Virus record (IMG/VR): IMGVR_UViG_3300021431_000082
Span: 72,047-136,046 of that record
Reading direction: 5' to 3' (one strand)
DNA from: a virus
Lineage: Duplodnaviria; Heunggongvirae; Uroviricota; Caudoviricetes
Length of the DNA: 64,000 bases
The position numbers were made by a program, and so were the translations under genes. This document shows, piece by piece, positions 29,525 through 53,000 of this stretch. Position 1 is the stretch's first letter. Each line of letters begins with the position of its first letter. The notes under the pieces are model-generated. The model was given only the letters and a program-made list of their open reading frames with translations. It was not told the origin of the DNA and did no database searches.

Positions 29525-30733
29525 GTGAATCTGAAAAAGCTACCCAGTGAAAACGAAGTGCAGTATATCTGGAGGCTATCATCTGCTAAAGGTAGTGGTC
29601 TCCTTGACATGAGCTGGCACGATCTATAGATGATCCTTAACGAGGAGCTGGGTTATGACAACTCCGAAAGCGTCTATCGTAAACAGTATGCCGCTGCCAA
29701 GAAGCTTCTTGATGGTGGATGTTTTCCTCGTATCGGTGATGAGTATCTCAAGGAGCTTGAGGCTAAGAAACATGCGCTTGAGGCTGAGCGCCAGAAACTC
29801 TTTGCCACAAAGGTTGAGTACAATCGTCAGGTAAGACAGGATAGCCGGCAGGAACTCTTTTATCAAAATATCGCTGATCATATCGAAAAGATCAACCCGC
29901 CAGTTCGTGAATACTGCTATGGTGGCGGTGGATTTGAAAATGATAAAGAGTATGTTCTCACCCTATCCGACATTCATGCCGGTGCAAAGTTCGAGACTGC
30001 TACAAACTCTTACTCTCTCGATGAAGTTGCCGCTCGCTTCGGAGTCCTCATTGATTCTGTGGATAGCTACGTTCACAAAGAGAATGTGACAAACCTGAAA
30101 GTTCTATGTCTTGGAGATACGATCCAGGGAATCCTGCGTGTATCCGACCTACAACTCAATGAGACATCGATTGTATATGCGACCGTATACATTGCTAAGG
30201 CTATCGCTGAAACTCTTAACGAGATTTCGAAGTGGTGTACCGTTGACTACTATCATGTACCGTCGGCTAACCATACACAGATTCGTCCGCTCGGAACCAA
30301 AGCAAGCGAACTGAAGAATGAGGATATCGAATATATCATCGGTAACTATATCAAAGATGCGCTTTCGTCCAATGTCCGCATCAATGTCCACCTGAACTTT
30401 GATAAAGAGTACATTGAAGTCCCGATCTTTGATGAAACTGCCATAGCTATGCACGGTCATCAGGTCAAAGATGTAGTTGATACTGTAAAGACGCTTGGGT
30501 TTGTTAATCGTAAATTCTATACCGCAGCTTTCCTCGGACATTATCATTCGTCAGGTCGTACTGTTGCCGGTGAAGATGGAACCAAGGACATCGAGGTTAT
30601 TGTCTGTCCGAGCTTTGTCGGTAGCGATCCGTACAGCGAAAGCTTGTTCAAGGGTGCAAGACCTGCCTGCGGTATGTATATCTTTGATAGGACCTACGGT
30701 TTGATCCGTACCGATAAATTTGTTTTAACGTAA
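29525..30733 (+). CDS. Metallophosphoesterase (402 aa; in-frame TAG at 29627)
   Basis: GTG start; LSDIHAG, LGDTIQG, HGHQ, GHYH motifs; the N-terminal QYIWRL...W segment continues through TAG. Confidence 0.85.
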
Positions 30734-30756
30734 TCTATGAAATGGAGTAAAAAGGA

Positions 30757-31056
30757 ATGAACGAAGCTGGATTTAATAACGTCCAGGTACTTCAGGAGGA
30801 GCTTCGACTACGTGGCTTTAAGATGAAGCAGGAAGACGTTAAGGAAGTGTATCTGGCTTTCTGTGATATGATTCGAGATTTTGCAAGGAATGGTTTCGAG
30901 CTAAACTTCCCAAACATCGGAAAGTTTGTAATCGTAGAACATAAGCCAAGGCAGCTCATCAGTAATCTGACTGGCGAAGTTACCGAACTCCCGTCAAGGA
31001 AGAAGCTTAAGTTTAGGCCGAGCAAGAAAATCAATGACATGATTAACCGGAGGTGA
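30757..31056 (+). CDS. HU-like DNA-binding protein
   Basis: FPNIGKF...RQLISNLTGE...KFRPSKKI. Confidence 0.8.
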   Translation: MNEAGFNNVQVLQEELRLRGFKMKQEDVKEVYLAFCDMIRDFARNGFELNFPNIGKFVIVEHKPRQLISNLTGEVTELPSRKKLKFRPSKKINDMINRR

Positions 31057-31061
31057 TTCAC

Positions 31062-32378
31062 TTGGGACGCCGGCCAAAAGCTGAAGCCATCTCGGCTATC
31101 ACAGGATATGCTCAGATAGATACAGCAAAGAATAATATGATAGCCCAGTTTGATCGTATGAAACCGAGAGATCAACTGGACTTCTTAAAGCGTATTGGCG
31201 TTGGCGTTTCTGAATTTCATCCGGTACAGTAGTTCGCTACCTGTGCAAGATGTGGCGAAGTAAAGCCGACAACTGAATTTTATACCAGTACTGAGACTGG
31301 AGTAGCTTCACATATCACGCCGATATGTAAGGCTTGCGCCAAGATTGTTTCATGCGGTATGGACATGAACGGTAATATTCTGCCGCCATCCAAGGCCAGT
31401 ACGATTAATGCAATGGAATGGTTGCGTAAGCCATTCATTGAATCGGTTTATTCACAAAGCATTGCAACCGCCAACAATGGCGGGAAGCTAAATGCTTTTG
31501 ATACATACATGCAGCAGATCTCACGACAGACTTATGTCGGGCAGAACTTCCGCGCTAACTCTGATTTCTACAATGTCAACAAGCCAGTTGTACTTGAGGA
31601 AGAAGAAGCGCCAAAGATGGCACCGATCAATGAGGATGCTGCAAAAGCTTTTGAGAAAAACAAGATTGACTGCCAGCGGCTGCTTGGATATCTCCCATAT
31701 GAAAATGAGGACTCATCCGATCAGCCTTATTTATATGCAGATCTTGTCAACTTCCTTGGTTCTGTCGAGGATGTAACTGAGAACTTCATGCGTGTACAGA
31801 CTATGGTCGGTATCGTCAGGTGGTATCTTCAGATCACAAAGATTGACAACCAAATCGCAAAGCTATCACAGCAGAGCATGGAAGCAAATATGGCAACGAT
31901 TAAAGGTCTCCAGCAAACTAAAGCACAGATCGTTGACACCATATCTAAATCAGCAGATGACTCCAAGATATCATTGAAGTCGAACCGGGATAATATCAAA
32001 GGCTCGAATACATTCACTGGTAAGCTGAGTAAGCTCAGAGACCTGAATCTTCGGGCAAGCTACGTCAACGGCTTCGATTTGGAGACCTGCAAAGCAATGC
32101 AACAGGTGGCGGATATATCTGATGCCGCCATTCTTAAACAGCTTAACCTTGATGAATCTGAGTGGTCCGATATGGTGGCTGAGCAGCGTAAGATGATTAC
32201 CAAGCTCACCGAGGAATCACACAGTTATCAGGAGGCTGCTCGACTAATACTGAAAGAGAACTTAGACCTTCGGGATACATTAAAAGATCATGGACTGCTC
32301 AACGAGGAAGCGTTAACCGACCTTGATGAGATAGTCACGAAGTATTGGGATAACGATGACGGAAGTCCTGAATCCTAA
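31062..32378 (+). CDS. Putative terminase small subunit / packaging protein (438 aa; TAG at 31230)
   Basis: TTG start after GGAGG; CxxC...CKAC zinc motif; directly upstream of TerL. Confidence 0.7.
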
Positions 32379-34446
32379 TATCTACAACGACGATATAGCC
32401 CAGAGATGTGTGTATGGCGCTGAGTTTGTGCGTAAGCTGCTCGGCGTTGAGCTTGGATGGGAAAAGATATACGAACGCCCTCCCGCTCTGTTGATGACAC
32501 ACAAACAGCTCGAAGGGTTTATCAAGCTGTAGCAACAACGTGACTATTACCAACAGAACCCCGTTAAGTTTGTCGAAGATTTCTTTCAGATTCAGTTGAT
32601 TGATTCCCAGGCTTATCTATTTCAGATGGCCTGGATTACACCAAGAGTTATTATCCTTGCAAGCCGTGGATACGGTAAGTCTCTGTTTATCGATCTATTT
32701 ATCATGACTAAACAGATGCTTGCTTCTGAGCCATGGACTTGCGCTATCGCGGCTGGTTCTTCTGACCAGTCGAATACAACCTTTAAGAAGCTCGAAGATA
32801 TTGCCTACGACCGTATCGATTCAATGATCGGTTCGAACGGTAAAATCTTCCGCGAAGAAATTGTTATACCAAACGCCAACGGTGATGGATTCAACCATAA
32901 CCCCTCCAGTTTCTCGTATCGTCTATATAACGATTCAGAAACGAACACCGTCAACTCCAACGTCGATAAGAACAGAGGTAAGCGTAAGCGAGCTGTCTTC
33001 TTTGATGAATCTGGTTTCCTGGACGCCGATCTCGTTCAGGTCTACAGCGCATTTGCAATCGTTGAAAAAGGATTCAAGACTGGATTTGATTCTGACGGTA
33101 ACGCTATTGATATGGTGCGGCTCAGGGCACTCCCACCTGAAGTCCCGAACCAGATCATTAACGTATCGTCCGCTTCGAATACGGACACTGACTTCTATGC
33201 TAAGTATCGTGACTACTCCAAGCGCATGATTATGGGTGACAGATCATTCTTTGTGGCTCATATTGACTGCGATCTTGTTATGAAGCCTACGGTACATGGT
33301 AAGCGAATGAGTGCGCTGTTATCCAAAGACACCATTGATGCAGCTATGCGTACAAACCCTGAGAAAGCTCGACGCGAGTATTACTGTCAGTTCACATCTG
33401 ATGCCGGCGCTAATGCTATCATCAGGCGTGGAGTCATTACCCGTAATGAGAAGACCTATAAACCGATCCATGAGAATTCAGACAATTCCGGTGGATGGGT
33501 AATCTGTTACGACCCGGCAAGAAGTCGAGATAACTCGATTATCTTAGCCGGTCAGATTTATGACTCTCCTACTAATGACGGTAAGATGGAAAAGTGCGGA
33601 AGGATTGTTGAGTGCGTCAACCTGCTTGATGTCGGTAAGAAGATCCGAAGTCCTATGCAGACGCCAGATCAGATTGAATATCTGAAGCAGCTGATTGTTG
33701 CTTTTAACGGTGATGCAGATGGATATGGAAATCTGTACGGAGTCTATATCGACGCAGGATCAGGTGGAGGCGGAGTTAATATCGCTGACTACCTGATGGA
33801 TGATTGGTATGACAAGGCCGGTAACTTTCACCGTGGTTTAATTGACGAGGAGTATTCCGAAGAGTACGTCAAGAAATTCCCGAATGCAGTCCGTGGCAAA
33901 CTGCACTTACTCTCCCCAAGTAAGTACAAGTCTGACATGTATGAAGCCCTCATTGAACTGTTCAATCAGAATAAGATTAAGCTGACAACCACATATGATG
34001 GAAGCGGTCAGTTAACAGTCTTCAATACCGAAGCTATTGACCTCGCTGCCGAAACCAAGAAGATCAGCGCAAAGCTTAAGAGGGAACAGCTTAAGCCAGA
34101 GGAATTCGACGCCAGATTGCAAGAGGAATTAGACAAAGCTCAAAACGTCAACTTAACCGTGGCCAAACTTGACTGGCTTGACGAGCTGTCACTTACAAAC
34201 ATAGACGCAATGAAGGAAGAGATAGTCAACATGGTGCGTATTAGTCGCGCTTCAGGCAAAGACTCTTTTGAGCTTACGCCTGAGAAGCAGAATAAACTCC
34301 ATGATGACCGAGCTTACTGTTGTGCTGAGTTTGCGTATGCTCTCATGTCAGCAAGACGAGCTCATTTAACCGAACGTAAGGTAACACAACCATAGACCCT
34401 CATTGACCGGATGTCAGTGAGAAAACCTCAAATATACAGGAGATAA
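32356..34446 (+). CDS. Terminase large subunit (696 aa; TAG at 32530 and 34393)
   Basis: ASRGYGKS Walker A, FFDESG Walker B, YDPARSRD and LHDDRAY nuclease motifs. Confidence 0.92.
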
Positions 34447-34452
34447 GGAATT

Positions 34453-34647: not shown

Positions 34648-34701
34648 TTTTAAGATACCGGGGCGGCTTATGTCGCCCCTATTACTTTAAGGAGGCCGCA
34701 A

Positions 34702-36210
34702 TTGGCTAGAAGAACTGTGGCTGCGGCTTCATCGCCGGGAACTGAATTAAGGTAGGTAGCTGAACTTCGAGAGTGGTTTAAGAAAACGGTAGAGTCAATG
34801 GGATCACTGAGGCTGATTGATCTCTCAAAGAACACAACTCGCCGCTACGGAAAGATCACTATCGAAAAGCTCCGCCAGTATTTTCAGAACCCATATCGGT
34901 ATCAGACCGAACTGATTAAAGCCGCTCAATACTTTTATCGGACGAACGCTGTGTTCCAGGCTTTAGTCCAGTACTTTGCTACTATGTTTGTGCCTGATGC
35001 AAGGAGCGTCATTCCACGTTATAACCTTGCCAAGCGTACAGCTGGTGCTGACAGTAAGGTAATCAAAGCTTACTATCAGACGCTTGATGAAATCGAAAAG
35101 CTTGATCTTCTTGCTAACTTTACCAAGATGCTGGTTGACGCATGGACTTGCGATGTAGCGTATGGCGTCCTGTATCGTGATGATACTGGTGCTTTTATAC
35201 TTCCACTTGATCCAGAGTATTGCCGTATCTCCGGTATGAACCCGGACGGTACATTTACTTTCGCCTATAACATGGATTACTTCCTCGGCAGCAACGAGTA
35301 TCTGCTCGACTACTTGGGCGAACCGTTCGTCTCCATGTATCGTGATCGTGGAGATTCAAAGTGGGTGAATGTCCCAAGTAATGTCGGGGTTGTTATCAAG
35401 ATCAACACAAACGACCCGCTTCTCATTATGCCTCCGTTTGCCGGATTGTTCTCAAGTTTAATTCAGCTGTCAAACCTTGAGGACATCCAGGATACAAAGG
35501 ATGCGCTAAGTGCATATAAGATTCTGGTTGCTAAGGTTCCACTTCTTGATTCCAAACTCCCAGATGATTTTGCCGTTGACATTGATACCGCTGAGAAATA
35601 CTGCAAGAAGATTGAGCAGAACCTGATGGAGCAGATTGGATTTGTCATGTCTCCCGGTCTTGATCTGGATGTTCTCGATGTTATGGAAGATGGCACTTCG
35701 GAAGTTAACCGCATCAATCAGGCGCAGAGCAATATCTTTGACAAAGAAGGAGTTCCGCTTCTCGACGCTAAGAACATTACAAGCTCTACCGCATGGAAGC
35801 TTATATCTATCTATAACACGAGACGAGCACTCTCCACTACTCTTCCGCAAATTCAGGCATTTGTGAACCGCTGGCTCCAGGACAAGATTGGACCTAACGC
35901 GGCGAAAGTGGTTTTCCACCTCACCTCTCCATACCTTCTCGACACCTTCCGTGAGCAGATTAAAGATTCTGCTACTCTTGGTATGCCTGTGAAGTTACTT
36001 CTCAATCAGCTTAATGGCGTGAGCGAGATCGACACTCTCAGGATGAACAAGCTTGAGATCGAAGAACTTGGACTGCATAAGGCGTTTATTCCACTCTCCA
36101 CTTCTTATACACAAAGTACTGATGCTGCCGATCCGATTGAAGGTGGAGCGCCAACTAAGATCGAGGTTACCGATAAAGGCGAAGAAAGTCGAGACGGTAA
36201 AGAGCAATGA
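34702..36210 (+). CDS. Portal protein (502 aa; TAG at 34753)
   Basis: TTG start after AAGGAGG; position after TerL; PLDPEYCRI and PLSTSYTQS motifs. Confidence 0.85.
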
Positions 36211-36383
36211 AGCAGTTATTTATTAAGACAAGAGACAAAGGAACGGCTGACAAGCTGAAAGAACTCGGCTTTAAAGTCATTAGCGAGTCTGGCGGAATGT
36301 GGACGTTTCTGAACGACTCCACGATTCGTTTTGACGCTGATGGTAATAAGAAAGCCGTGTACAGCGATAGGATCGAAATCTAA
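36207..36383 (+). CDS. Small conserved head-region protein (58 aa)
   Basis: MKQLFIKTRDKGTADKL...; overlaps both neighbours. Confidence 0.7.
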   Translation: MKQLFIKTRDKGTADKLKELGFKVISESGGMWTFLNDSTIRFDADGNKKAVYSDRIEI

Positions 36384-37879
36384 TGAGAAAACTTATGACA
36401 CTTGATGACCTGTATAGCTTCTACTCTCAGCAGGCCGTATCTGCCAACTTCAGTGTGGATATGGACCATCCTGCGATTGCGGTTGCTGTACCTGGCCGAC
36501 TTACTTACGAGGAGGACGCATAGCAGTTCGGACTTACTCCGGTTGTACTGAATGCGTGTCACACCGGTAAGAATCTCAACCAGTCTCGCATTTCCAAGGA
36601 GACGATGGAGGAGGCGCTACCCTCATTCAGGAATCGCCCGATTCTCGGCTATATCTGGAAGGACGAGGATGGCAATCCGCAGTTTGATTCTCACAACATG
36701 CATCAGGATGAAGATGGGGCTATTGTTTATGACGAACAGCCTATCGGACATATTCGTGAAAACAGTGACGTTCATCTTGAGTATGACGAAGCTGAGGATA
36801 AATATCGTGTGATCGCAGATGGATTTATCTACGATGATTACACGGATGCGGTTGAGATTCTTAAGCGTGAGACACAGTGTGATGTTTCTGTGGAACTTGC
36901 AGTCCTCGACCTTTCATACTCCGCTGAAGAGCGTGTTCTCGACATCAATAAGTTCATCTTCACCGGCGTTACGATTCTCGGTAAGGATGAATAGACCGGT
37001 GAAAAAGTCAATCCTGGAATGGAAGGGTCTAACATCACCGCTTTTGAAAACGGGAATGTAATTACAATTGATGCGTCTAAAATATCTAGCGGTACTATCG
37101 TTGCTAATAACACCGCCCAGTTTACGACGATCAATATAAACGAAAATCAAGGAAAGGAGGGGGATGCAACAGTGGATGACGTAAACATGAACGCTCAAAC
37201 CACTGAGGGGGGATCTACCGTTGATACCACTCCTTCTGCGGTTCGTGCGTATAGTGTTGTTGTTGATGGCGAAACCCACAACTTTGAACTGACGCTCGGT
37301 GACATTCAGTTCGCTCTCAACCGTCTTGTCAATGAGACCTACGGCGAGGCGGACGATTGCTACTATGATGTCGAAGTTTACCCTGATTCCAGTACCGTTG
37401 TTATGTACAACTGGTGGATCGGCAATGAGGGTTATCGTCAGAGCTTTGAGTCCGACGAGGAAGGTAACTACTCTCTCACCGGCGAGCGTGAGGCTGTCAA
37501 GCGTGTCTGGATTACTGAAGCTGAGGAACAGCAGATTGATGCTGACCGCCAGTCTAAGGCAGACCTTGAAGCTCAGCTCGAAGAGATCAAAGGGCAACTC
37601 GCTACATATCAAGAAGCTGAAGCTAAGGCACAAAGACAGGCTGTGATTGAAAGTGAAGATTTCGCTGTCATCGCTGACACTGAGGAATTCCAGGCTATCG
37701 TCGCTGAGATCGACAACTATTCTGTGTCTGAGCTTGAAGATAAGCTGAATACTCTTCTACTCAGCTATGCAAAGAAACAGTTCGCCGCTAATAAGCCAGA
37801 GGCTAAGCCTGTGGTGCAGTTTGCTGTGAACGACAAACCTACCAAGAAGTCTCCGTACGGCGGACTCTTCAAAGACTAA
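36383..37879 (+). CDS. Prohead protease/scaffold (498 aa; TAG at 36521 and 36992)
   Basis: ACHTGKNLN, NRPILG, SVEL, FTGVTILG...PGMEGS; acidic coiled-coil C-terminus; joins three ORF-track fragments. Confidence 0.85.
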
Positions 37880-37902: not shown

Positions 37903-38379
37903 ATGACTAATATTGAAGCATTCCTTGCCTCCGTCAGTAAGCACGCAGTCGCTGAGTAGACCAAGATTAAGGCTACCGAGTGCGGCCACATGTTCAATCT
38001 GAAGGCAGACAAGGATTATGACAATGGTGTTGTTGTTGCTAAGAATGCTTATCTTGAGGGCGATATCTATTCCATCAAGGATTCCACCGACTTTGCTGGA
38101 ACGATTGTTGATATCGCAGCTAATGGCAACTTCATCGTGCATGTTACCGATCCTGGTGATGGCCTGCTTGTTCTGACCCCGCCGCTGGCATATGTGACCG
38201 AGCCTGCTCGTTTCGCTGCCGAGGATCAGTTCTACAACGCTAAGGATTCCATCATGAGAGCTTACGAGCTTGTTAAGGATGATGAGTTCGCTGTTTCTGC
38301 TGAAGGTTTCGATACGACCCCTTCCAAGGGACAGACTGTTACTGTTACTGCTACCACCCGTAAACTCCATACGGCATAA
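37903..38379 (+). CDS. Capsid decoration/auxiliary protein (158 aa; TAG at 37957)
   Basis: AAGGAG RBS; HAVAE*TKIKAT, DYDNG, RAYEL...DEFAVS motifs. Confidence 0.8.
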
Positions 38380-38399: not shown

Positions 38400-39503
38400 A
38401 TGAGAATTACGTTTGATCATGAAGTAATCTCCTCTGTTTTTGAGAACGAGGAGCAGTTCGAGGGCTTTAAGTCCCTGATGTTTGAAGCTGGCATGAAGAA
38501 CTTCAGCGAGGCTTCTATGACTATCGCCAAGGCTAACGCTAAGATCCGTGACATGTTCACAGAGATGACTGGCCTTGAAGTCGGCAAGAAGCATACGAGA
38601 ACTGAAGTGCGTAGAGCTATCCGCAGAATGCAGAATGATCCGGTTTGCTTCGACCTTATGGAAGAGGTTCTGGATCAGATCATCACTACCGGTTGGAATG
38701 AGAATCCGTGGTTCAACGAGTTTGTTGAGAAGAGAAATCCTGCGCTTGGTGATTCCATCGTATTTACGACAGAAGATGATACTGTCCTTTCTGTCGAGAA
38801 GGTTGCTGGGAATCATCACGATCTACGCAGACAGCGCCTTGGCGTTGGTTCTCATGTAACTCCGACGACCGCTTGGTATGGCGTTAAGGTTTATGCTGAG
38901 TTCGAAAAAATTCTTACCAACCAAGAAGACTGGAGCAAGCTTGTCTCTAAGGTTGCTGAGGCGTTCGTGAAGTTTGTTATTGACTTCACCTATTCCGCTA
39001 TCGGTCAAGCTACTACCAAGATGGCTACCGAGGCTAAGTTCCACAATACCGGATCTCTGTCCTATGCTAACGTCATTGCTCTTGCCGGCGAGGTTGAGGC
39101 TGTGAACCAGGGTTGCGAAGTCGTGATCATGGGTACCAAGACCGCTCTTGCTAACCTGTATGCGATTGCTCCGGCTCAGTGGATTTCCAACGAGATGCAG
39201 CAGGAGCGCAATCAGACTGGTAAGCTTGGCATTTGGCAAGGCTACAGACTGGTTGAGATTCCGAACGGTTACACCGATAAGACTCTGACCACGAAGCTTG
39301 TTGCTGACGATCAGATCCTGTTCATCCCGGTTAGCGCCGATATGAAGCTTGTCGCTATGATCGATGAGGGTGATGGTGTTATCACCGAGATCAATGATCA
39401 GGCTGTCCATATGGATATGACCTACGATTACGAGTATCAGCGTAAGATGGGCTTTGCTCTTCTGCTTCGTAGGAAGTTCGGTGTCTGGACTTCTATTGTC
39501 TAA
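38400..39503 (+). CDS. Major capsid protein (no TAG)
   Basis: 367 aa; strong codon bias; position after protease and decoration genes. Confidence 0.85.
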   Translation: MRITFDHEVISSVFENEEQFEGFKSLMFEAGMKNFSEASMTIAKANAKIRDMFTEMTGLEVGKKHTRTEVRRAIRRMQNDPVCFDLMEEVLDQIITTGWNENPWFNEFVEKRNPALGDSIVFTTEDDTVLSVEKVAGNHHDLRRQRLGVGSHVTPTTAWYGVKVYAEFEKILTNQEDWSKLVSKVAEAFVKFVIDFTYSAIGQATTKMATEAKFHNTGSLSYANVIALAGEVEAVNQGCEVVIMGTKTALANLYAIAPAQWISNEMQQERNQTGKLGIWQGYRLVEIPNGYTDKTLTTKLVADDQILFIPVSADMKLVAMIDEGDGVITEINDQAVHMDMTYDYEYQRKMGFALLLRRKFGVWTSIV

Positions 39504-40113: not shown

Positions 40114-40575
40114 ATGTTACAGCTGACGTACAACGAGATTTACAGCTCGTTCTTCTCGAAGGTAGAATCGTATGACCTCGCATAGATGGTCGAGGAACAA
40201 GCAAAAGATATGATGTCTGAGTGGCTCCACTCCGTAGCTGTTAATCCCAGAGTATTCAAACTGCTGTCAGACTTTGAGCTTGATGATGAAATCGGAAGAT
40301 TCAGATTCCAGCTTAAGCGGACAAGTGGTTTTGATGCTGTGGATAAGGGCTACATGAAGGATGTGCTTGCTACCGGTGTGGCTCTTAAGTGGGCTGAACC
40401 TAAGTATGCTTCGGCACTGAACGTCAGCCAGGTATTCGGATAGTCTGAAGTATCATACTATTCACAGGCAAATCACATCAATGCGGTAAAGGAAATGGTT
40501 AGCGATTTGGAAGCTCGCTTCGCTAAACTGATCAGGGACTATGGAACCTACAACAACCGTTATATTGACGGATAA
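40114..40575 (+). CDS. Head-tail adaptor (153 aa; TAG at 40183 and 40441)
   Basis: YNEIYSSF at N-terminus, YSQANH motif after second TAG. Confidence 0.8.
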
Positions 40576-40888
40576 ATACGGAGCTGGATTTACTCCTGAG
40601 CAACTGGAGAAAGAACTGGAATTTCTACACAAAGAAGTTCACCGTCTACTCTATGGTAAGGAGAATGATGATCCAAAGCTACCGATTTATTTTGATAAGC
40701 TTCAGCGGATGTTAGCTGGCCTGAACGAGCTACTGGCCTGTCCGCCTGAACTTGTCAGTCTGATGAGCGACATTGAGTAGGCTCGTATCGAAGCGGCTAA
40801 TCCCGACTTTGATCATGAGGCTTATCGGCGACTGATACTTGATTCTCATTCAATACTCGACAGGATGTTTGGAGGTGTTGAAAAATGA
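40541..40888 (+). CDS. Neck-region hypothetical protein (115 aa; TAG at 40778)
   Basis: Read-through gives ...YRRLILDSHS and a TGA overlapping the next ATG. Confidence 0.75.
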
Positions 40889-42030
40889 TCACACTTCTGG
40901 ATAATCAAACTCGACTTATGAATGGGTTTCAGGGAAAAGCGCACGAATCGCAATCAGACATGGTTCTTGAAGCCACCTGGGGACGCAATGGTTCTGACAA
41001 GGTAGCGTATATATATGACTACTTCCATGATGACCAGCCCGATCTTGCTTAGGGTATGAGCTATTCGCAGTACACCACAAAGACAAAGATCGACATCAGA
41101 TATAATCTGACCGCTAAGGCATCACTTGCGAAAGACCAGAACGAATCTCATATCATGTTCCGACCGAGCGTTGAGCGTAAATTAACCAACACTTGGCCAC
41201 TCGATTACTACCCTACATCGTTCGGGAAGAACGCAGAGTTCCCCGTGGGGCTTTTTATTGATATCCCCGATAATAGAAATATCTATCGCAAATGGTTAAT
41301 ATGTGACCGGACATACTCCGAATCATATGTCTACTATCTAATTCTCCCGTGTAATTATTATTATACATGGGTGAAGGATGATAAGACATATGGCATGTGG
41401 GGTGTGGCACGTATCCAAAATTAGTACAATAGCGGTACGTGGAGAGCCAATATTACAAGTACTGTAGAAAACCAGGATCTTGGTTGGCTCCCAAATAACA
41501 GTTACACAAAGACTATTTTTTACGACACTAGGTTCGCTATTTGTGATGATATGCCTGAACCGATTGTTTGGAAATGTTCCAAAGTATCGACTGTACATCC
41601 GTTCGGGATCTACAAACTGACATTCTATCAGGATCGCTTTAATGCAGAAACTGATAAGTTTGTCGATGGCTTTTGGTACTGTGACTACAATCGGCAGAAC
41701 ATATCCAAAGAGCCTACGACTGAAATTACTCGTGTAGTGAGACTAACGCCAAGCTCCGGGCAATACAACATCCGCTCTGGACCTTATTCAAAAACTCTTG
41801 CTGCCACCATCATTGAGGATGGAGTAGACTTGACAGATAAGGCACATACCTATGGATGGCAATGCTTCATCGGAGATCAAAATGTCACTGGCGAACTAAC
41901 TCCTACTTACGATGGAAATAAAGTCACCCTTCACATGGAAAGCTATGATCACATTGGCGAGACGCTTCGTGTGGAAGTTCTCGTTGATGGTAAAGATAGC
42001 GCAACTATCGAACTGGAGGTGATCGCTTGA
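40885..42030 (+). CDS. Head-closure/neck protein (381 aa; TAG at 41050 and 41422)
   Basis: FPVGLFIDIPD, WLI, ILPCNY, QN*YNSG; joins two ORF-track fragments. Confidence 0.82.
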
Positions 42031-42623
42031 CGCTTGCTGAACGCAAAGTATTTTACAAAGACGAGATTGAACGCCTCCGCAATCTTACACAAATTACTCA
42101 GCATGAAAACATCAACTATAAGGAGAAGATCAAACATGTTCTCCTAAATAGTAAAGAACTTCTCTACGCTCTCAACAACACTGAGTTTGAGGGAAAGGAT
42201 GCCACCGCTGCTGATTACTTTGGTGTAAATATCCTGCCGTATATTATTGATCCGAATACCAGGCATATTGATCGGACCACAATTATGTACGACACAATCC
42301 ACTCAACTTACGCCGCTTATAATCCTGATGCTATCAAAATCCAGTATCTTCGTTTTTTAATTCTCGTACCACCGGCTGAGGCTATTGATACTCTTACCGG
42401 GATTCCAAGGCATGATCTGGTTGGGGCGATTATCGCAGACATGTTTGCCGGCACTAATATCTTCGGATGTCAGTGTAGGCAAATTGATGACAAAGGCGGA
42501 TCGACCGATTAGATGTTTATTTCTCGTGATATGTGGTTTGAGATTCATGCTCCTAACAACCGGATACGAGATGGAAAATTCATGCAGAATATTGTCAGGT
42601 CTGATTATCCTGGCAAACCGTAA
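42027..42623 (+). CDS. Tail completion protein (198 aa; TAG at 42510)
   Basis: ILPYII, RHDLVGAII; read-through ends at TAA overlapping the next ATG. Confidence 0.75.
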
Positions 42624-43366
42624 TGGCAGAGAAATTAAAACTGGAAATTGATGAGCTGAAGCTTTATTTCGGCTACGACTATCATGTCGGAAACATTACG
42701 ATACATCAACCCACTATGGGTCAGATTATCGACTATGGCGAACGTGAATACTATTCAATGGTTCATTGCCTAACATCAATCCCAAGTGACGCTAAATAGC
42801 TGTTATGGGAAAGCGGGATTGATTACTGTAAGATTAGCGATTTTGAGTACTTTATTCATATGACTCGGAACCTTTCTCAAGAGCAGACGAGTGTCCTTCT
42901 GGGCGACTTGGATTTGTCGAAGATGAATGTATATAAGAAGGATGAGGATCTGTTCCTTGTTGATGAAGAGCGTGGTCTCATCATTGATAAGATGGTTCAT
43001 CTTAATATTGCTACATACCTTCGTATGCTCCACAACATTAAGACCAAACCGGAGAAAACTAAGAGTAAAATTATCCGTGATATTCTTATAGAAGATGATA
43101 AGCGGAAGCGTGAACTTCACAAAGATGATGAGTACCAATCTGCTCTTCTGCCTATGTTTTCAGTGCTTGTAACTTCTGGGATCTATCGGAAGGACGAACT
43201 GAAACAGGTTGGGCTATATGAATTTTTTAATACAGTTAACCGTTTACCGATGTTAAAAACTGCTGCGGCGGTAATGAACGGTCTTTATTGTGGTTTTGCG
43301 GACTACAGTAAGAACCGTGCAATACTCGACCAGGCAAACATTTACCGGGATATTCCCAAAAACTAA
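42623..43366 (+). CDS. Conserved tail-region protein (247 aa; TAG at 42797)
   Basis: ITIHQPTMGQIIDYGEREYYS...IPSDAK*LLW...ISDFEYF. Confidence 0.82.
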
Positions 43367-43384: not shown

Positions 43385-44200
43385 ATGATTCTGAAGAATC
43401 TAATGATCGACCGTGTTATCGACCTTACCGACTACGACAGATAGACCGGCCTTCGTCGTTTCACGCTGCCTGAAGTTCAGGACTTCTAGATCAACGTGAC
43501 GACTCAGGAAGACGAGATCACCGATGCTACCGGTTCTCCGATTGCTATTCTTGAGTCCGCTAAGTCCGCTGAGTTCTAGGGCAACTCTTCTTTCACCAAC
43601 CTTGAGCTGCTTGCTTATCAGTCTGCTGCCGATGACAACATCCTTACCAAGGATATCAACGGTATGGAGATCATCGAGGTGCTAACCATTACAGATGGTA
43701 AGGCTACCCTATCTCATACTCCTGTCGGCACGACTGGTAGCGAAATCGAGTATGTCTATGTTCGTAACTCCGATGGTACGAATGGTGACTACATGGAGCA
43801 GAGCACCGAGGCTGCTGCTGCCACTGCTACTGCGAAGGCTAAGTTCTCTCTGAGCGGTAAGGAACTGACCTTCGATAGCTCTCTGAATGGTACTTCCATC
43901 TATGTTGACTACAAGTTCAATGCCACCTCTGGTATGTACTTTGAGTCTCTGGATGATAAGTTCACTACCTCTTCCAAGATCGTTGTCCGTGTCCTTTGCA
44001 GAAACGTCTGCGATGATAACATGGTCACCGTGCTTGCTATCGTCTGCGAGAACGCTAAGCTGGCTTCCGCATTCGATCTGAGCTTCGCAAGATCTGAGAC
44101 TCATCCGTTCACCTATCGAGTCATGCCTGCGTACTGCGGCACTTCCGGTAAGTCTCTGTACAAGATCTACGTGCTTGATACTGACGACTACAACGAGTAA
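43385..44200 (+). CDS. Major tail (tube) protein (271 aa; TAG at 43442, 43487, 43577)
   Basis: GGAGG RBS; strongly biased codons; ends HPFTYRVMPAYC...LYKI. Confidence 0.82.
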
Positions 44201-44680: not shown

Positions 44681-44926
44681 ATGAATCCAAAGCTAGTCTA
44701 CTCACGTATGTTTCATGCAACATATGACACGAGTAAATGCGTCCGGGTTGTGAACCCATCTCAGATGTAGTTCTATCTTGAGAATGACGCTATGCCGAAA
44801 GATATTTATATCACAAAAAATTTCAAGACCGATAGAGATATGGTAGTTATGGTCTTTGATCGGAATGAAACCGCTGAGTTATATAAGCAGTGGGAATCCA
44901 ATAGAAAAGAGGTTGTAACCGCTTGA
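44681..44926 (+). CDS. Small conserved protein (81 aa; TAG at 44768)
   Basis: VRVVNPSQM*FYL...DIY...VMVFDR.ET.ELYKQW. Confidence 0.72.
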
Positions 44927-46110: not shown

Positions 46111-46129
46111 ATAGGAGTAAAAAGGAATA

Positions 46130-46783
46130 ATGCAAATTAAGAATGATATTGGACTAATCCCGGTAACTGAAGTTGGTGCTCTTCCACCTGAAGCCAATAT
46201 GCAAATCCCAGACCCTGATCTGCTGAACTATTACAGGCTCGCTAAAGAGCGGGTCTATTTTATTGACTTCGAGATTGATGGAACACTTATGTCTCTTATC
46301 AAGGAGATTATCAGAATTAACATGGAAGACATGGGTAAGCCGGTCGAGGAGCGAATTCCGATTGTATTCCCGATTCTATCTTATGGTGGGGATCTGGATG
46401 TGACCTACACCTTCATCGACACATGTGCCATGAGCAAGACGCCAATCATCACAGTTAACATGGGCGTGGCCATGAGTGCTGGTGTACTACTGCTTCTTGC
46501 TGGGCATAAGCGTTATGCGTTAAAGCATTCTGATGCTATGATTCATTCTGGTTCTGGTGGAATGGAAGGAACATTTGAGCAGATGGAAGCCAGCCAGAAT
46601 TTTTATAAAAGCCAGATTGCAAAGATGCGTGAGTATATTCTTGACAGGACAAAGATTGATCCGAAGGTATTCAATCGTAAGAAGACTAAGGATTGGTATA
46701 TAAGCGCTAACGAACAACTTGAGCTTGGAATCGTAGATTGCATCGTCGATGACTTAGACGAGGTGTTTGCAGTTGGAGTTTAA
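46130..46783 (+). CDS. clpP: ClpP-like serine protease
   Basis: ILSYGGD, GVAMSAG (Ser), AMIH (His), WYISANEQLELGIVD. Confidence 0.85.
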   Translation: MQIKNDIGLIPVTEVGALPPEANMQIPDPDLLNYYRLAKERVYFIDFEIDGTLMSLIKEIIRINMEDMGKPVEERIPIVFPILSYGGDLDVTYTFIDTCAMSKTPIITVNMGVAMSAGVLLLLAGHKRYALKHSDAMIHSGSGGMEGTFEQMEASQNFYKSQIAKMREYILDRTKIDPKVFNRKKTKDWYISANEQLELGIVDCIVDDLDEVFAVGV

Positions 46784-47237
46784 ACTTATATCTTTTGACT
46801 GTAATTCATATGATACTGGATTTGCAGTATTTAAGCATGGCAAGCTTATTAAGTAGGGTGTGCTTAGTGAAAGACCAAAAAGTAAAAAGCCAAAAGCTCG
46901 ACTAGACGGTATGATATCGCAGATATATCAGAAAATTATTGATGAACATGCGAATATTGTTGTTGTTGAAGATGAGGTTGTTGGAGAAAACATACACGCA
47001 ACTGTTGTTTTATCAAAAATAATTGGTGCAATTATAGGGAAGTGCATAGAGTTGAATATTCCATATTTGTGCTATGCACCGTCTCAATGGAGATCAAAAC
47101 ATGGTATTCAGGATAGCAAGGCTAAACGCCAAGAGCTAAAGCGAATGGCCATCGATAAAGTTAAAGAAATTTATAATTCTGACGTGTCAGACGATGAGGC
47201 TGAAGCAATCCTTATTGGAGCCGCCTGGTATTTATGA
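46773..47237 (+). CDS. RuvC-like Holliday junction resolvase (154 aa; TAG at 46854)
   Basis: ISFDCNSYDTGFAV, VVVED, DDEAEAILIG; the first catalytic Asp lies upstream of the TAG. Confidence 0.82.
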
Positions 47238-47258
47238 TATCATAATAGGTAGAAAGGG

Positions 47259-47633: not shown

Positions 47634-47673
47634 TTCAGGCTGCTCTCGGGTCAAACCAGGGCAGCTATTTCTT

Positions 47674-48243
47674 TTGGAGGAAATGGAAATGAAACTAAAT
47701 GCTTTTCTTAAAGAATACGATGCACTAAAAGAGAACGAACAGGACGCATTTCTTCGGTCACATATCAAGAGAACATATGTGCCGTTTATGGAAAAGAATA
47801 ATATGGCAGAGCGAGCTGCAAAGGCAAGCTGTGTCTTTGACGATAGATATGATCCACACTCTTCTATTTTCAGAATGTTTAAGATGCTCGATATGATCGA
47901 GGCATATACTGACATTCAGTTTGATAGGATTAAAGATGGAAAGACTCTTGTTGACAAGATTTATGATGAGTTTCAGATGAGAGGATTGTTTGATAAGCTT
48001 GAATCTGAACTCTCGATCCGAGAAAAATACGAACTTGATATTGTGTATATGGACACACGCGTAGATCTTGGGGAAAGGATGACATCAAACTATGCGATGA
48101 TGGAGAAGTTTGTAGAAAGAGTTGAGGATATTATTGGTGTGATTGGTAATTCAGTGAACGACGCTTTAGAGAAGGCCGCTAATAGTGGATTGATAAATGA
48201 TATTATAGATAGTGTACAGTCTAAATATGAAATTGATTCTTAA
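47674..48243 (+). CDS. Putative tail assembly chaperone
   Basis: 189 aa; IKRTYVPFMEK motif; position upstream of TMP. Confidence 0.6.
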   Translation: MEEMEMKLNAFLKEYDALKENEQDAFLRSHIKRTYVPFMEKNNMAERAAKASCVFDDRYDPHSSIFRMFKMLDMIEAYTDIQFDRIKDGKTLVDKIYDEFQMRGLFDKLESELSIREKYELDIVYMDTRVDLGERMTSNYAMMEKFVERVEDIIGVIGNSVNDALEKAANSGLINDIIDSVQSKYEIDS

Positions 48244-48264
48244 TAATGATTTGTGCGGATTTAA

Positions 48265-48298
48265 CAAATTGACGGAGAATATCACTCCGTCAATTTGC
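48265..48298. terminator. Bidirectional terminator
   Basis: AAATTGACGGAG-AATATCA-CTCCGTCAATTT between convergent genes. Confidence 0.7.
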
Positions 48299-48302
48299 GA
48301 TT

Positions 48303-48971
48303 TCAAATATTTATCAAAGAAAATAGCATGTGTATTATACCGGTTTTGTTGATTGTCATTTTGTCTATTTTGAGAAAGTTGATTGGTATATTATAATATT
48401 GAAATTCTTTTGAATCTTTGATAATTTTTAATGCATCCATAATTATTTGTTTTTGATAGTGTATCGCCACTTTCTTTTGATTGCTATATGATAATAATAC
48501 ACTTATAAATGCATCAATTTCAATATAGTCAAAACCGACTTTTTTATCGACTCCTGTGCTCTGTCTAATTTCAGGTTCTCCAAAATATTTTACCAAGGCT
48601 TTATATTCGGAATTGCCGCAATATGAACAAAGTTTCGCCGCTTGTGTTCCAGTCATTCCGTCTTCAATCGTGTCCATTAACATCCATAACATTAGCGGAC
48701 TAACATTTTTATTAATGCGCCTTTTTAACCCAATGGCAATTTCATTAATCGGTGGAGGTACTTTTATATCCCAATTGTATTTAGATATGAATTGAGGAAG
48801 TAAATCCTTGCTTTCTTTATGAAATGTAATTCTGTTGCTGCCCAAGTCGTATCTAAAAGTTTTTCCACCACATTTAATATCAGCATATATAAATTGGTCT
48901 TTTACAGCCTTGATAAAAATATATTTTCTAATCATTGAATTATATAGTATTGGAGGTAATTTTGAGTACAT
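48303..48971 (-). CDS. AT-rich antisense accessory protein of unknown function
   Basis: 222-aa ORF opposite to the late operon. Confidence 0.65.
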   Translation of the reverse strand: MYSKLPPILYNSMIRKYIFIKAVKDQFIYADIKCGGKTFRYDLGSNRITFHKESKDLLPQFISKYNWDIKVPPPINEIAIGLKRRINKNVSPLMLWMLMDTIEDGMTGTQAAKLCSYCGNSEYKALVKYFGEPEIRQSTGVDKKVGFDYIEIDAFISVLLSYSNQKKVAIHYQKQIIMDALKIIKDSKEFQYYNIPINFLKIDKMTINKTGIIHMLFSLINI

Positions 48972-49343
48972 CAGAGTTTATAAATAAGTATAGCATATAT
49001 AAAACAGATTCTAATCGAGAATAGTTTCTTTAGTCAACGATTAAAAGAAGTTACGTCCCACTTCTGGAAAAAGTAGATATATGTCAAAGCATTAAAAAGA
49101 ATACAGAATGTATTACAAGCGTTCCAAAAAGCATTGCTTCATATGTTATGTTTTTGTTATTCATTATAGATAGCTATACATCTATTAATATTAATTTTCA
49201 ACAAGAGCGCTTATTTTCTGAATATGATTTATTAAGGGCGAATGGTGTTATATCACTATTGCTTGGTTTTATAAGTGAGGAAGAAATATCCGAATTTAAT
49301 TTAATTATGGATGCTATTAATGATAAGGAATGCGGAGTTATTT

Positions 49344-50039
49344 ATGGGGAAAAAGACACACCTATCACTTAATGTTCCGGTTAATATGCAGTAGCTTAAT
49401 TGGGGAAAGGATGTTCTTAAATCATATTTACATAATGCGAAAATAATATACAAACGGGAACATAAAAGTTTATTAAAAGAGATTGAGGCGCATGGGCGAA
49501 AGATCTATGATCTAGTGATAGCAGAATATTATGCTTCGTACACTCCTAAATATTATGACAGACACTATACTACTCCAGGTCATCATCCAGGCTTTAATCT
49601 TTATAGAGCTAATAATTTTATTATTGATGAAGAAAATATAGTCTCATATGATTTTAACTCATAGTATATGAATTTATTACCATATTATTCATTTTGGCAA
49701 AAGAAAAATTATAATGATGGAAATGGTTTTGTCAAAAGGGGATATGGACGATTCAAAGTATTTTTAATGGTGTTAGCTGGAAAAAGAAAGTTCCCACAGT
49801 GGGCAAAAGACGAAGATGGAAATTTCAAAAAGGATGATGATGGTAAGCGTTATGTGGTTGTTACTGAGAAGTAGTATAGTTTTAAAGTACCATATGGGCC
49901 ATTACACAAAACATTCTCTGGCAAGCCATATCAAATACTAAATGAAGCGGCTGAGCGCCTTGTTTTATATTATAATCGAGAACTTATAAAAAGAATAAGA
50001 GAAGGCATTGAAGGATTAGAAGTAAGGTGGGTTAAATAA
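49344..50039 (+). CDS. Pre-tape-measure hypothetical protein (231 aa; TAG at 49392, 49662, 49872)
   Basis: Open through three TAGs; YYASYTPKYYDR motif; TAA lies 2 nt before the TMP start. Confidence 0.7.
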
Positions 50040-50041
50040 AT

Positions 50042-53000
50042 ATGGCGGATCTTAAATTTTCATCTAAAAGCAAGATGTTAGATATGGATGCCATTACAAA
50101 GAGCATTGAAAACACAGTATTATCGTAGTTTCAAAAGCTTACGTCCAATCTACAAAAAGAATTAAAACTAGAGTTAGAGGTACCTATTGAGTTCACAGAA
50201 CAGAAGAAAAGTCTAAACAAGTAGATTAGTAATCTACAAAGGTAGATTGATAACTCTCTGTAGGATGTTCGATAGGAACTTCAAAAAAGCATTGAAGATC
50301 GGTGGAAATTCAATCGTACCGGAAAATATGGCACGAACAAAAAGAATCAACCAATAAATCTTAGTGATTATACTAAGATGGTTGATATCAGAGACTATAA
50401 AAACAAGCGCCTCGAAATGATTAAGCAATTAGCTGATATTACAGATGATGGGATCAAATTAAAAGATCCAAAAAATCTACATCAGCTAGTTCAAAATATA
50501 AAAGCTTACGAAGAAGCTTTGCGCAGATTACATGAACTTTCTGCACAGAGAAATATGAAGTATAAGCCTGATGAGGGCGAGCTTAATTTTGAACAATTAT
50601 TTCCAGGGTATAAGCTCTCGGGTGATATGCAAGCAAATGCAGACGCAATGGCAAAATCCTTTGCAACTGCATATAAGACGTCGTTGCAATCAGAATTAGA
50701 AAGCAAAAAAAATGAATTATCCAATATATTGCTTGATATTAATAGAGCTGTTGCAAGAAGCGCAAGCAAACAAGAAGGCGTTGGGTATGAATATGATCAG
50801 AAGGCGTATGAAAAAGCGGTAAAAGCTAGGGAGGACGCCCAGCTTCGCATTGATCATAGCGAAGCTCAGATTGAAAACTCTATCAGAGATGAGATTAATG
50901 CGTATATAGAACTTGAACGAAGGCTGAATAGTCCTGACCTAGATTAGAACAGTGCGCTTTATGAAGATCTGGCTGATCGCGAAGATAATAGTTTGGCGCG
51001 ATTAAAAAGAGCGATTGAACTAATTGATAAATATAAGATTGAAATTCCAGAATTAACAAAGGTCTACAATGAAAATTGGAATCTGAGTGGAGAGACACTT
51101 GGCGATCTTATTCGTGAAAACGTAGACGGTTTCGATTAGAACACTTCGTTCTTAAGTGGTTTTGAAAAAGATGCCGAAAGGGCAAAATCAGACTGGATAA
51201 AAGCAAATAGAGATGTTGATACAGCAAAGTAGTATCTTGATTCTTGGAAGGACTTATTACTTCAGTTAAAAGATACTGATCAGATGCAAGAAGCCGTTGA
51301 TAATATTTAGAAAGAAAAGATTGATTCTGAATTACGATCTTTAAGAGAAGAAAATGAACGGCTCTCTTAGCGTATCCAGGTTTTAGAGGATGAACTGAAT
51401 ACATTTCAAAACGAAAATGTATATAACGATACTGGTTATCATGATGCTCAGGTAAATACTGTAGCAAAATCTGAAGATACGCATTCTCTTGATGCTGAAA
51501 TAGATGATGTCAATTTATTAAACAATGCGATAAAAGATGTCATCAGCTCAATTCATAGCAAAACTGAGGCGTTCGGATCAGAACGTGATAGTGTTGTAAA
51601 CTGGCTTGATGATGAAATAGAAAAAATAGATGAGCTATCTCGAAAGGCTGATAGAGTCACACCAGATCTTTCTTTAAATAATGGTGGCGAGCTTGTAAAT
51701 AACAGCACTGCGAATGGTAATTCATTTTCTGCTTTGCAAGACTCGGTCTCTTCTGTTACTTAGAGTGTCATACGATTTGGAGAAGCTGTTGATACGGCGT
51801 CGCAAAAGCTCGGTAATATTAAAACCAAAAATGCGTCCAGTCCAAAAGAAAGTTCATAGTCCGATTTTGAAAAACGTGTGGCATCTGCGGCCAAAGCCCT
51901 TAACAATTAGACAAACCAGTTTATTTAGGGCGTTGATGTTATTGTTAAAACAGAAGAAGAATATCAGCGGTTGAGCCGCAAAAGTAATCGCTCAAGTAAG
52001 GAAAACACCAAGCTTAATACTTTATTAAATGAACGAGCCGCCGCTCGTGATCGAATGGATAGGAACCATGTTGACCACGAAACATTTATGGCACAGCGCG
52101 AAAGGATGGAATCAGCGTCAAGGCGTGCCGCATAGGCGATTCAAGAAGAAGTCAGAGCAGAACGCGAACTTGCCAAAGCTGAAGCGGAGCAAGCAGAACA
52201 GGCAAGAATTGCAGCTCAAGCTAAAGAAGAAAAAGCGAAACGTGACGCCGCCGCAAAAGTTGAACAAGAAAGACAGGCAGAGCTTGCGGAAACTTATAAA
52301 AAGTTTGACTACCTTGAAAAGAATATGAACCGATATGTTCAGGGTACTCTGCTTGGCGATTCTGGCGATGACTGGGATGACTTTTCAAAGAATTTTGAGG
52401 AGACGTTGGCGTTTGCCAAGAATCTAAAAGCTGATACAGTAGGCATTATTGAAGCTAAAAGGAAATTAAATAATGCCGAGGAAGAGGCGTATCTTAATGC
52501 CGAAATTGAAAACGGAGTTCGTCTTGAGCAGCAACGTGTTAATCTAATTGCCCAGGCAAAAACCGAGAGAAAAAATGAAGCGGATGAGCTTGTGAAAATG
52601 GATCAGGATATTGGTCGAGCTTTTGCCACAAATACCTCGTCTAAATCCGCTAAAGATTCATATAGTATTTTTGCCAGTACCGGCATGATAGACGAACAAG
52701 CCACAGAAGAAAAAGAATGGCTTGCAAAAATATCTGAATATCAAGATTTACAATCAAAGATTTCGGATCTCTTATCAAAACAAGCAACGGTTGGATTGAC
52801 GCCAAATCAATCATAGAAGCTCGATGATTATCGTGATAAGCTTGCCAGCCTTGAATTAGCCTTTGATGATCTGGAAGATGGCGTTTTAGTCTCTGATAAA
52901 GTAAAAGATGCGGTAAATAACATGGCTGCGTCTGGAGAAAGGGATATAACTTCATATAATAAAATTCTTAGTGAGTTTAATAAGAATTTTGCTTTTGTCC

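Follow-up and report, generated by a model that had tools for sequence, protein, structure and literature searches.

A start-proximal bias of in-frame TAG codons in the late genes of a TAG-recoded phage

Introduction

Recoding of a stop codon in structural and other late genes, together with a suppressor tRNA, is known from phages, and its proposed role is to block untimely synthesis of late and lysis proteins (10.1101/2021.08.26.457843; PMC9523058; PMC10607447). For phages with a code unlike that of the host, Borges et al. report TAG-to-Gln and TGA-to-Trp only (bioRxiv 10.1101/2021.08.26.457843). Here we describe a 64,000-nucleotide stretch of a virus of the Caudoviricetes (IMGVR_UViG_3300021431_000082; this whole stretch is termed the window), which covers bases 72047-136046 of a single linear record of 151,909 bp, estimated to be 83% complete. 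The late genes of this phage contain in-frame TAG codons that are concentrated close to the gene starts. As in the crAss-like, Lak, Garnet, Topaz, Agate and Jade phages and in Phass-1, TAG is found in frame in late genes and avoided in early genes, and a tRNA(CUA) is encoded by the phage.

Results

In-Frame TAG Codons Lie Close to the Starts of Late Genes

Almost no in-frame TAG is present in the minus-strand genes that occupy the first ~22 kb of the window or lie upstream of it. The early/replication genes thus avoid the codon, as judged from the long minus-strand open reading frames (ORFs) at ~18-93 kb of the genome, whose standard-code stops are TGA in 71, TAA in 37 and TAG in 5 cases. On the plus strand, from ~23.4 kb, past the end of the window and round to the start of the record, TAG is the only interruption of the genes. 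Late-gene recoding is sparse, with 4.2 TAGs per 1000 late codons. The TAGs are found inside conserved late genes, and homology crosses them both in alignments to non-recoded relatives and in matches to PHROG profiles.

The curated set comprised 49 late genes, of which 30 lie within and 19 outside the window, or 48 once the two frames of the tape-measure protein (TMP) gene were merged. Starts were curated from Shine-Dalgarno (SD) sites, gene coupling and homology; clear GGAGG-type SD sites lie 5' of the gene starts. The genes were delimited by TAA or TGA, and none of them ends at TAG. Codons 2-65 hold 29 of the 88 in-frame TAGs, compared to 13.8 expected if TAG occupied a random subset of the Ser and TAG sites of each gene (p<1e-5). 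The first TAG falls within codons 2-65 in 24 of the 28 TAG-bearing genes (11.9 expected, p<1e-5). A statistic free of any threshold gave z=-5.2, uniform and Gln-based nulls agreed, and every cut-off from 20 to 150 codons was significant, as were the tests whether or not the TMP frames were merged. Outside the window the first TAG was found at or before codon 65 in 10 of 11 genes compared to 5.2 expected (p~0.001). These genes are a fair replication, since the initial annotation had picked out the clustering of TAG near late-gene starts after seeing the window. The clustering thus holds inside and outside the window, also against the synonymous sites that the initial annotation had proposed for comparison. 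We conclude that the start-proximal bias is real and well supported.

The density of TAG per 1000 codons along the late genes was as follows:

codons 2-7: 0
codons 8-20: 14.4
codons 21-35: 12.5
codons 36-50: 4.2
codons 51-65: 11.1
codons 66-80: 8.3
codons 81-500: about 2

The profile is that of a zone with a step at ~codon 80, and there is no gradient. No TAG was found in codons 2-7 of the 48 late genes, where ~3.5 would be expected at the rate of the zone (P~0.03), and the zone starts at codon 8. In the giant genes a 6-9-fold peak in codons 22-78 rises over a flat internal density, and TAG reaches codon 2318 and ~3100. A late gene of 2531 codons (genome 1836-9431) carries TAGs at codons 22, 29 and 71 as well as internal ones, 16 in all. 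The step shape fits a fragment-length threshold or a positive 5' component rather than a cost proportional to length.

As a separate observation on the giant genes, a second one on the late strand, of 2444 codons (genome 140193-147527), has zero TAGs compared to the 16 of the 2531-codon gene.

Late Genes of the Window and Their Relatives

Relatives were sought with the major capsid protein as query (IMG/VR, metagenome scan). The recoded relatives L017-L020, L023 and L026 have 77-90% capsid identity, and L001 and L029 are near-identical pieces. Fifteen IMG/VR relatives that use the standard code (L002-L016, ~40% capsid identity) served as non-recoded controls for starts, residue identity and conservation. 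Four-fold sites of the window are identical at 44-53% to those of the recoded relatives (53% for L023). The nearest named relatives of the capsid protein, at ~28-30% identity, are from large siphophages of Bacillus, Lactococcus (949 group), Clostridioides and Alicyclobacillus, and the host is therefore probably a Firmicute. No Pfam family was found among ten late proteins, and PHROG profiles were used instead. Quoted names in the following list are those of the initial annotation.

29525-30733, plus strand: exonuclease (SbcD/Mre11-like), 402 codons; TAG only at codon 35 (29627-29629), with ATG directly next
31062-32378, plus strand: 438-codon gene, putative 'TerS'; single TAG at codon 57 (31230-31232)
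32356-34446, plus strand: large terminase (TerL), 696 codons; TAG at codons 59 (32530-32532) and 680 (34393-34395)
34702-36210, plus strand: portal, 502 codons; single TAG at codon 18 (34753-34755)
36383-37879, plus strand: 498-codon head-module gene, putative 'protease'; TAG at codons 47 (36521-36523) and 204 (36992-36994)
37903-38379, plus strand: 158-codon gene before the capsid gene, putative 'decoration'; single TAG at codon 19 (37957-37959)
38400-39503, plus strand: major capsid, 367 codons; no TAG, here or in any recoded relative
40114-40575, plus strand: 153-codon gene, putative 'adaptor'; TAG at codons 24 (40183-40185, then ATG) and 110 (40441-40443)
40885-42030, plus strand: 381-codon gene, putative 'neck'; TAG at codons 56 (41050-41052) and 180 (41422-41424)
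42623-43366, plus strand: 247-codon gene whose start overlaps the upstream stop; single TAG at codon 59 (42797-42799)
43385-44200, plus strand: virion structural (tail) gene, 271 codons; TAG at codons 20, 35 and 65 (43442-43444, 43487-43489, 43577-43579)
44681-44926, plus strand: 81-codon gene with an SD site; TAG at codon 30 (44768-44770)
46773-47237, plus strand: RuvC-like resolvase, 154 codons; TAG at codon 28 (46854-46856)
49344-50039, plus strand: 231-codon gene before the TMP gene; TAG at codons 17, 107 and 177 (49392-49394, 49662-49664, 49872-49874)
50042-54418, plus strand: TMP exon 1; TAG at codons 29, 61, 68, 74 and 78 (50126-50275), the next at 302, then scattered
55703-61453, plus strand: probable TMP exon 2; 12 scattered TAGs; ATG at 55694 without an SD site

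With the curated starts we arrived at the same codon for every TAG whose position the initial annotation had given, and its statement that the major capsid gene lacks TAG was borne out.

Most of the starts are well marked. The exonuclease gene has a GTG start with the SD sequence GGAGGT, and TTG starts are found in the 438-codon gene (GGAGGTG), the portal gene (AAGGAGG) and the RuvC-like gene (GAGGTG); the SD sites of the 37903 and 40885 genes are strong. TerL starts at the ATG at 32356 without an SD site, and the alternative GTG starts would move its first TAG still nearer to the start. The next possible start of the 36383 gene comes only at codon 75. The starts of the 49344 gene and of TMP were chosen by SD site and coupling only; no homologues of the 49344 gene were found and its start, picked from a GGAG sequence, is thus less certain.

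PHROG profiles matched the exonuclease (PHROG 284, residues 30-391), TerL (PHROG 2), portal (PHROG 2739), the 36383 protein (PHROG 3313, from residue 52), the 40114 protein (PHROG 3853, residues 6-145), the tail protein (PHROG 2729) and the RuvC-like protein (PHROG 827, residues 4-151). The only match of the 438-codon gene was a weak one to endonuclease VII; the segment upstream of its TAG has substitutions in the ratio 9:7:46 by codon position. Non-recoded relatives align from residue 4 of the exonuclease, with Ala in the TAG column, from residue 11 of portal, and from residue 1 of the 36383 protein, with Ser or Asp in column 47. In TerL they align across both TAGs (Ala at 59; A, Y, H or S at 680). 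The TAG columns of the 37903 gene (in 12 non-recoded relatives), of the 42623 gene and of codon 180 of the 40885 gene are invariant Ser in the non-recoded relatives, and codons 35 and 65 of the tail gene align to conserved Ser.

The two TMP frames join in frame without stops to 3375 codons. We merged them because of this and because the second frame lacks an SD site. The region 55703-61453 is therefore probably exon 2 without a separate gene start, and the TAG at codon 26 of the frame 55694-61453 was not counted as start-proximal. The TMP frame halts at a TAA (54509-54511) and is taken up again, in phase, at 55703, with a minus-strand ORF (55207-55722) in between; no Rfam match to a group I intron was found in the gap (window 54419-55702) at E<=0.01. 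Within the plus-strand late block, just before the 49344 gene, lies a TAG-free minus-strand ORF (48303-48971), possibly an acquired accessory gene, in a low-GC island (48000-50000, 31% compared to ~44%).

TAG Is Most Likely Read as Serine

The phage encodes a suppressor tRNA with anticodon CUA. This tRNA of 87 nt was found by ARAGORN within a tRNA cluster at genome c[51797-51883], ~20.2 kb before the start of the window; no tRNA was found within the 64-kb window itself. The variable arm of the tRNA(CUA) is long and paired, its discriminator base is G73, and its D-arm resembles that of the phage's own tRNA-Ser(UGA). A promoter and terminator scan round the tRNA cluster gave a signal no better than shuffled sequence.

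Within the recoded clade TAG alternates with Ser in 19 of the 33 variable columns (45 of 91 cells, with a Ser background of 7.4%) and with Gln in 4 of the 33. Five TAG columns, four of them start-proximal and one internal, correspond to Ser in every non-recoded relative or in nearly every one. Because TAG alternates with Ser codons and the tRNA(CUA) is of the Ser type, TAG is most likely read as Ser by the phage tRNA. Genetic code 15, in which TAG is Gln, was considered and rejected on the Ser alternation, the conserved Ser columns and the Ser-type tRNA.

Another TAG-recoded phage, Phass-1 (L032, OQ749652), has three tRNA(CUA) genes (L032 record c[62442-62532] and c[62536-62610]; L033 record c[105744-105820]). 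One of them is 91 nt long with an extra paired arm, so Phass-1 may use suppressors of different kinds.

Older TAGs Are Start-Proximal in the Recoded Clade

We compared the TAG positions with those in the recoded relatives. Ten TAG columns are common to every available recoded member, namely exonuclease 35, TerL 59, portal 18, 37903:19 (kept in all six recoded relatives), both TAGs of the 40114 gene (24 and 110), tail 20 and 35, 44681:30 and RuvC 28. The exonuclease and portal TAGs were seen in L001, L023 and L018, and the last two in L023 and L026. Nine of the ten are start-proximal, while only 12 of the 34 variable columns lie within 65 codons of the start (Fisher p=0.003). From the window to L023, 12 of 15 start-proximal but 2 of 5 internal TAGs are retained.

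Genes that have lost a 5' TAG usually have another TAG. In the 438-codon gene TAG 57 is kept in L023, and L018 has TTT there and TAGs at codons 8, 11, 83 and 270 instead. The 36383 gene of L018 has TCG at codon 47, keeps TAG 204 and has a new TAG at 248. In the 42623 gene TAG 59 is kept in L023 and L020, and L026 has TCA with a new TAG at 191. TAGs of the 40885 gene are found elsewhere in L023 (codon 24), L020 (280) and L026 (184, 303 and 329), and codon 65 of the tail gene is TCT or TCC in the relatives. The initial annotation had asked whether orthologues keep a 5' TAG at shifting positions; the 5' TAG is mostly retained at an unchanged position, and the shifts are few. Altogether, the older TAGs cluster near starts and the younger ones are dispersed, which is the mark of position-dependent survival.

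Probable Selection on the Position of UAG

We find selection linked to early abortion at UAG to be the best reading of these data, because the bias is codon-specific and independent of site conservation (see below). Selection would act on where UAG sits, and a start-proximal UAG would be an inexpensive checkpoint or throttle that makes about half of the late genes depend on the suppressor; we assign this a probability of roughly 0.55. The early-abort design is moderately supported, and a temporal gate on late proteins is unproven. The proposed sequence of events, the simplest cause of such selection, is as follows. UAG would be read as Ser by the phage tRNA(CUA), charged by the host seryl-tRNA synthetase. 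Where release factor 1 wins the presumed competition with the suppressor at a UAG in codons ~8-80, translation would abort. The product would be a short peptide unable to fold, with little waste and, if long fragments are indeed harmful, no fragment that poisons assembly; the rest of the mRNA would be left untranslated. Late-gene output would then track the suppressor level, and the nuclease genes, the terminase and portal would be among those throttled, possibly with a role in timing.

Several observations weigh against this reading. Twenty of the 48 late-strand genes have no TAG, although their 7358 codons should hold 31, so a checkpoint of this kind would not apply to late genes in general. 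They include the capsid, PhoH-like and ClpP-like protease genes. The number of start-proximal TAGs per gene is approximately Poisson, genes with a single one being slightly in excess. The suppressor tRNA is encoded among the early-strand genes. These points, together with the 5' retention and Phass-1 data below, speak against a timed gate: of the early abort signal proposed in the initial annotation, which was to block late proteins until suppression is on, the selection for early abort stands as the best reading and the timing is conjectural. No phage-borne RF1/RF2 or cognate synthetase was found by matches to PF00472 (release factor) or PF00587 (aminoacyl-tRNA synthetase) in the record, which is estimated to be 83% complete; such genes are not obligatory for recoded phages. 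TAGs private to single relatives are start-proximal in 7 of 24 cases by hand count, compared to ~5.4 expected, and the ~80% retention of 5' TAGs is about the level that, by our own estimate, neutral TAG-to-TCG escape would leave at Ser-constrained sites. Phass-1 is an independent test of generality. Its deposited annotation is fragmented at TAG, so our own SD-based gene calls were used; applied to the focal genome, the same automatic procedure recovers the bias at p~3e-4. Phass-1 has 36 start-proximal TAGs compared to 27-30 expected (p=0.03-0.06) with a nearly flat profile. The pattern is therefore clear in the focal clade and weak in the one independent phage.

The TAG-free genes of the window are also TAG-free in all relatives (capsid, 30757, 39560, 44256, PhoH-like 44923, ClpP-like 46130 and 47689). 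The contrast between the two giant genes and the total of 20 TAG-free late-strand genes suggest a separate class of expression, or genes recently taken up from a standard-code phage.

The alternative that survives best is passive tolerance. Suppression would never be complete and TAGs would arise by mutation throughout the genes. Those that release harmful, costly or long fragments would be purged, those in the first ~80 codons would be near-neutral and persist, and the phage would make no use of the aborts. The old TAGs being start-proximal and the young ones nearly uniform is as expected from such purging, as are the near-neutral 5' retention, the near-Poisson counts and the absence of TAG from the capsid gene, whose expression is presumably the highest among the late genes. 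However, giant genes that tolerate TAG up to codons 2318 and ~3100 keep their 5' peak, and a cost growing with length predicts none. Neutral persistence accounts for the retention but not for the many start-proximal changes from Ser to TAG (4 of 9 sites compared to 1 of 35, see below). We consider passive tolerance unlikely, although it deserves serious attention.

We lean to the active version, in which early UAGs are kept since output thereby becomes suppressor-dependent, over the passive one. The reasons are the 6-9-fold 5' peak of the giant genes over a flat internal density, the far more frequent change to TAG at conserved start-proximal Ser sites than at internal ones, and the early TAG in all four nuclease-type genes (exonuclease, 438-codon gene, TerL and RuvC). 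A positively selected checkpoint, in which the zone of codons ~8-80 is set by the length below which a released chain can neither fold nor poison assembly, is a tentative proposal that we hold at somewhat less than even odds.

It is improbable that the bias is a historical accident, in which a few start-proximal TAGs were fixed in the ancestor of the clade and inherited without position-dependent selection. Most 5' TAGs are indeed shared by descent among the relatives, and Phass-1 shows no clear bias. On the other hand, the bias is common to ~30 independent sites spread over 24 genes, out-of-window genes included, for which chance placement has p<1e-5, and internal TAGs turn over faster than 5' ones.

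The Bias Is Independent of Site Conservation

The initial annotation had named relaxed constraint at N-termini as an alternative, by which a nonsynonymous TAG would gather where any residue is tolerated. Conservation was measured among the non-recoded relatives only. Codons 1-65 were indeed somewhat less conserved there, with a top-residue frequency of 0.64 compared to 0.75 and with more gaps. Nevertheless, the 5' excess was found in all three conservation strata and was strongest in the middle and high ones (Cochran-Mantel-Haenszel odds ratio 9.4, p=1.5e-6). A logistic fit gave 2.35 +/- 0.55 for the 5' term, while the conservation term (-0.38 +/- 1.14) was not significant. The bias did not vanish once site conservation was controlled, the outcome by which the initial annotation would have given it up. 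Where the relatives conserve a Ser column, TAG is present at 4 of 9 start-proximal sites but at only 1 of the 35 internal ones (Fisher p=0.004). Four of the start-proximal TAGs (37903:19, 42623:59, 43385:35 and 43385:65) stand at Ser columns that are invariant or nearly so in the non-recoded relatives. Relaxed constraint is therefore disfavoured, and we regard it as very improbable.

The Bias Is Specific to In-Frame TAG

Of the 62 codons, TAG shows the strongest enrichment near starts (z 5.4), followed by TTT (3.2), CTG (2.7) and AAA (2.6). The other rare codons CCC, CGG, CGA, TGC, CGC, AGG and TCG have z values from -0.8 to 2.1, so that rare or AT-rich codons do not match the bias as the initial annotation had allowed they might. 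TAG trinucleotides out of frame are not enriched (z -0.2 and -0.5, compared to 6.2 in frame). Because only in-frame TAG is enriched, the effect is one of translation; neither base composition nor a DNA motif accounts for it. An explanation with TAG as one codon among many, namely a general codon ramp or an AT-rich bias at the 5' end, could draw on the mild start enrichment of TTT and AAA, but no ramp of rare codons is seen over the first 30-65 codons, where TAG alone stands out far above all others, and this explanation is still less probable than the preceding one.

Early TAGs Lie Inside Coding Sequence

Non-recoded relatives align across every early TAG of the 36383, 37903, 40114, 40885, 42623 and 43385 genes. 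PHROG matches span the first TAG in six genes (the putative decoration, adaptor and neck genes, the 42623 gene, tail and RuvC), and in two further ones, TerL and the 36383 gene, the match already begins 5' of the earliest start codon available after the TAG. The long starts are marked by strong SD sites or by overlap with an upstream stop, and no comparable site was found 3' of the TAGs. Comparison of the window with four recoded relatives gave 98:41:415 substitutions at codon positions 1:2:3 in the segments before the first TAG, the same pattern as downstream of it (882:461:3438). Since these substitutions are biased to the third position, the segments upstream of the first TAG are translated in that frame. 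In the worst case, with every TAG in the first 25 codons treated as upstream of the true start, the first TAG was still start-proximal in 18 of 23 genes compared to 9.3 expected (p=5e-6). That the early TAGs are upstream stops, in ORFs which overrun the true start when TAG is read as sense, did apply to some ORFs (24881 with TAG 10, 44890 with TAG 5 and the first codons of the TerL ORF), which were trimmed or excluded, and five start-proximal TAGs have ATG directly after them, but given the alignments, PHROG spans, SD sites, substitutions and worst-case test a start-codon artefact is the least probable explanation of all.

Other Observations

ATG directly follows TAG in 8 of 88 cases (5 of 35 start-proximal ones), compared to an ATG frequency of 2.1%. 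The start-proximal sites are window 29627-29632 and 40183-40188 and genome 136593-136598, 147729-147734 and 149158-149163. The excess extends to internal TAGs, and L023 lacks the Met at the exonuclease site. The ATGs may reflect an effect of context on suppression or mark restart sites (reinitiation). At the +4 base, G is more frequent after 5' TAGs than after internal ones, in small numbers.

Two genes have a TAG close to the C-terminus, the 26431 gene at codon 919 of 921 (window 29185-29196) and TerL at codon 680 of 696 (34393-34446). Both would give nearly the same protein end with or without suppression; the TerL relatives align beyond TAG 680.

The major capsid gene is split by extra ORFs in several non-recoded relatives (L009-L016, L030; locus ~8300-12100). 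Matches to the capsid protein there cover residues 3-284 or 133-366 only, and these may be introns or inteins with homing genes.

Discussion

If the start-proximal UAGs are indeed a positively selected checkpoint, sequence data would show for the first time that a recoded phage exploits termination at a reassigned stop, beyond tolerating it. The checkpoint would also be set in a TAG-to-Ser code, which is absent from the Borges preprint (10.1101/2021.08.26.457843) and the other surveys examined. The timing model of phage recoding rests on which genes bear the recoded codon, and a position bias is another type of evidence. The bias implies that termination at UAG is frequent enough in infected cells for selection to see. 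In practice, gene callers that use the standard code will truncate N-termini or misplace starts at start-proximal TAGs.

Late-gene recoding with a suppressor tRNA is already established, and the new element here is the start-proximal position bias. Published analyses of recoded phages work at gene level, on which families prefer the recoded codon, whereas the present one concerns position within genes. We found no statement on the within-gene position of recoded codons in the Borges preprint (10.1101/2021.08.26.457843), in Peters et al. (PMC9523058) or in full-text literature searches. The phages of the Borges preprint read TAG as Gln, whereas here TAG aligns with Ser and the tRNA is of the Ser type. 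Phass-1 is much more heavily recoded than the focal phage.

Two older lines of work concern the position of codons within genes, and a third concerns ambiguous codes. Newton, Beckwith, Zipser and Brenner reportedly described in 1965 a polarity gradient of nonsense mutations in E. coli mutants, in which the effect on downstream expression was strongest near the gene start. By this gradient early UAGs would be the tightest off-switch. Slowly decoded rare codons are said to be enriched in the first tens of codons as a 'ramp' (Tuller and coworkers, 2010). That ramp concerns rare codons generally, while here it is one reassigned stop codon only, and no ramp of other rare codons accompanies it. Finally, the ciliates Condylostoma and Parduczia are reported, by Swart and coworkers and by Heaphy and coworkers in 2016, to have stops whose meaning depends on position. 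These ambiguous codes resemble the present case in the uneven distribution of the reassigned stop and in the competition between termination and sense reading. In the ciliates, however, these codons also act as real terminators and are depleted immediately ahead of the true stop, whereas in this phage no curated late gene ends at TAG and the reassigned codon is enriched near gene starts.

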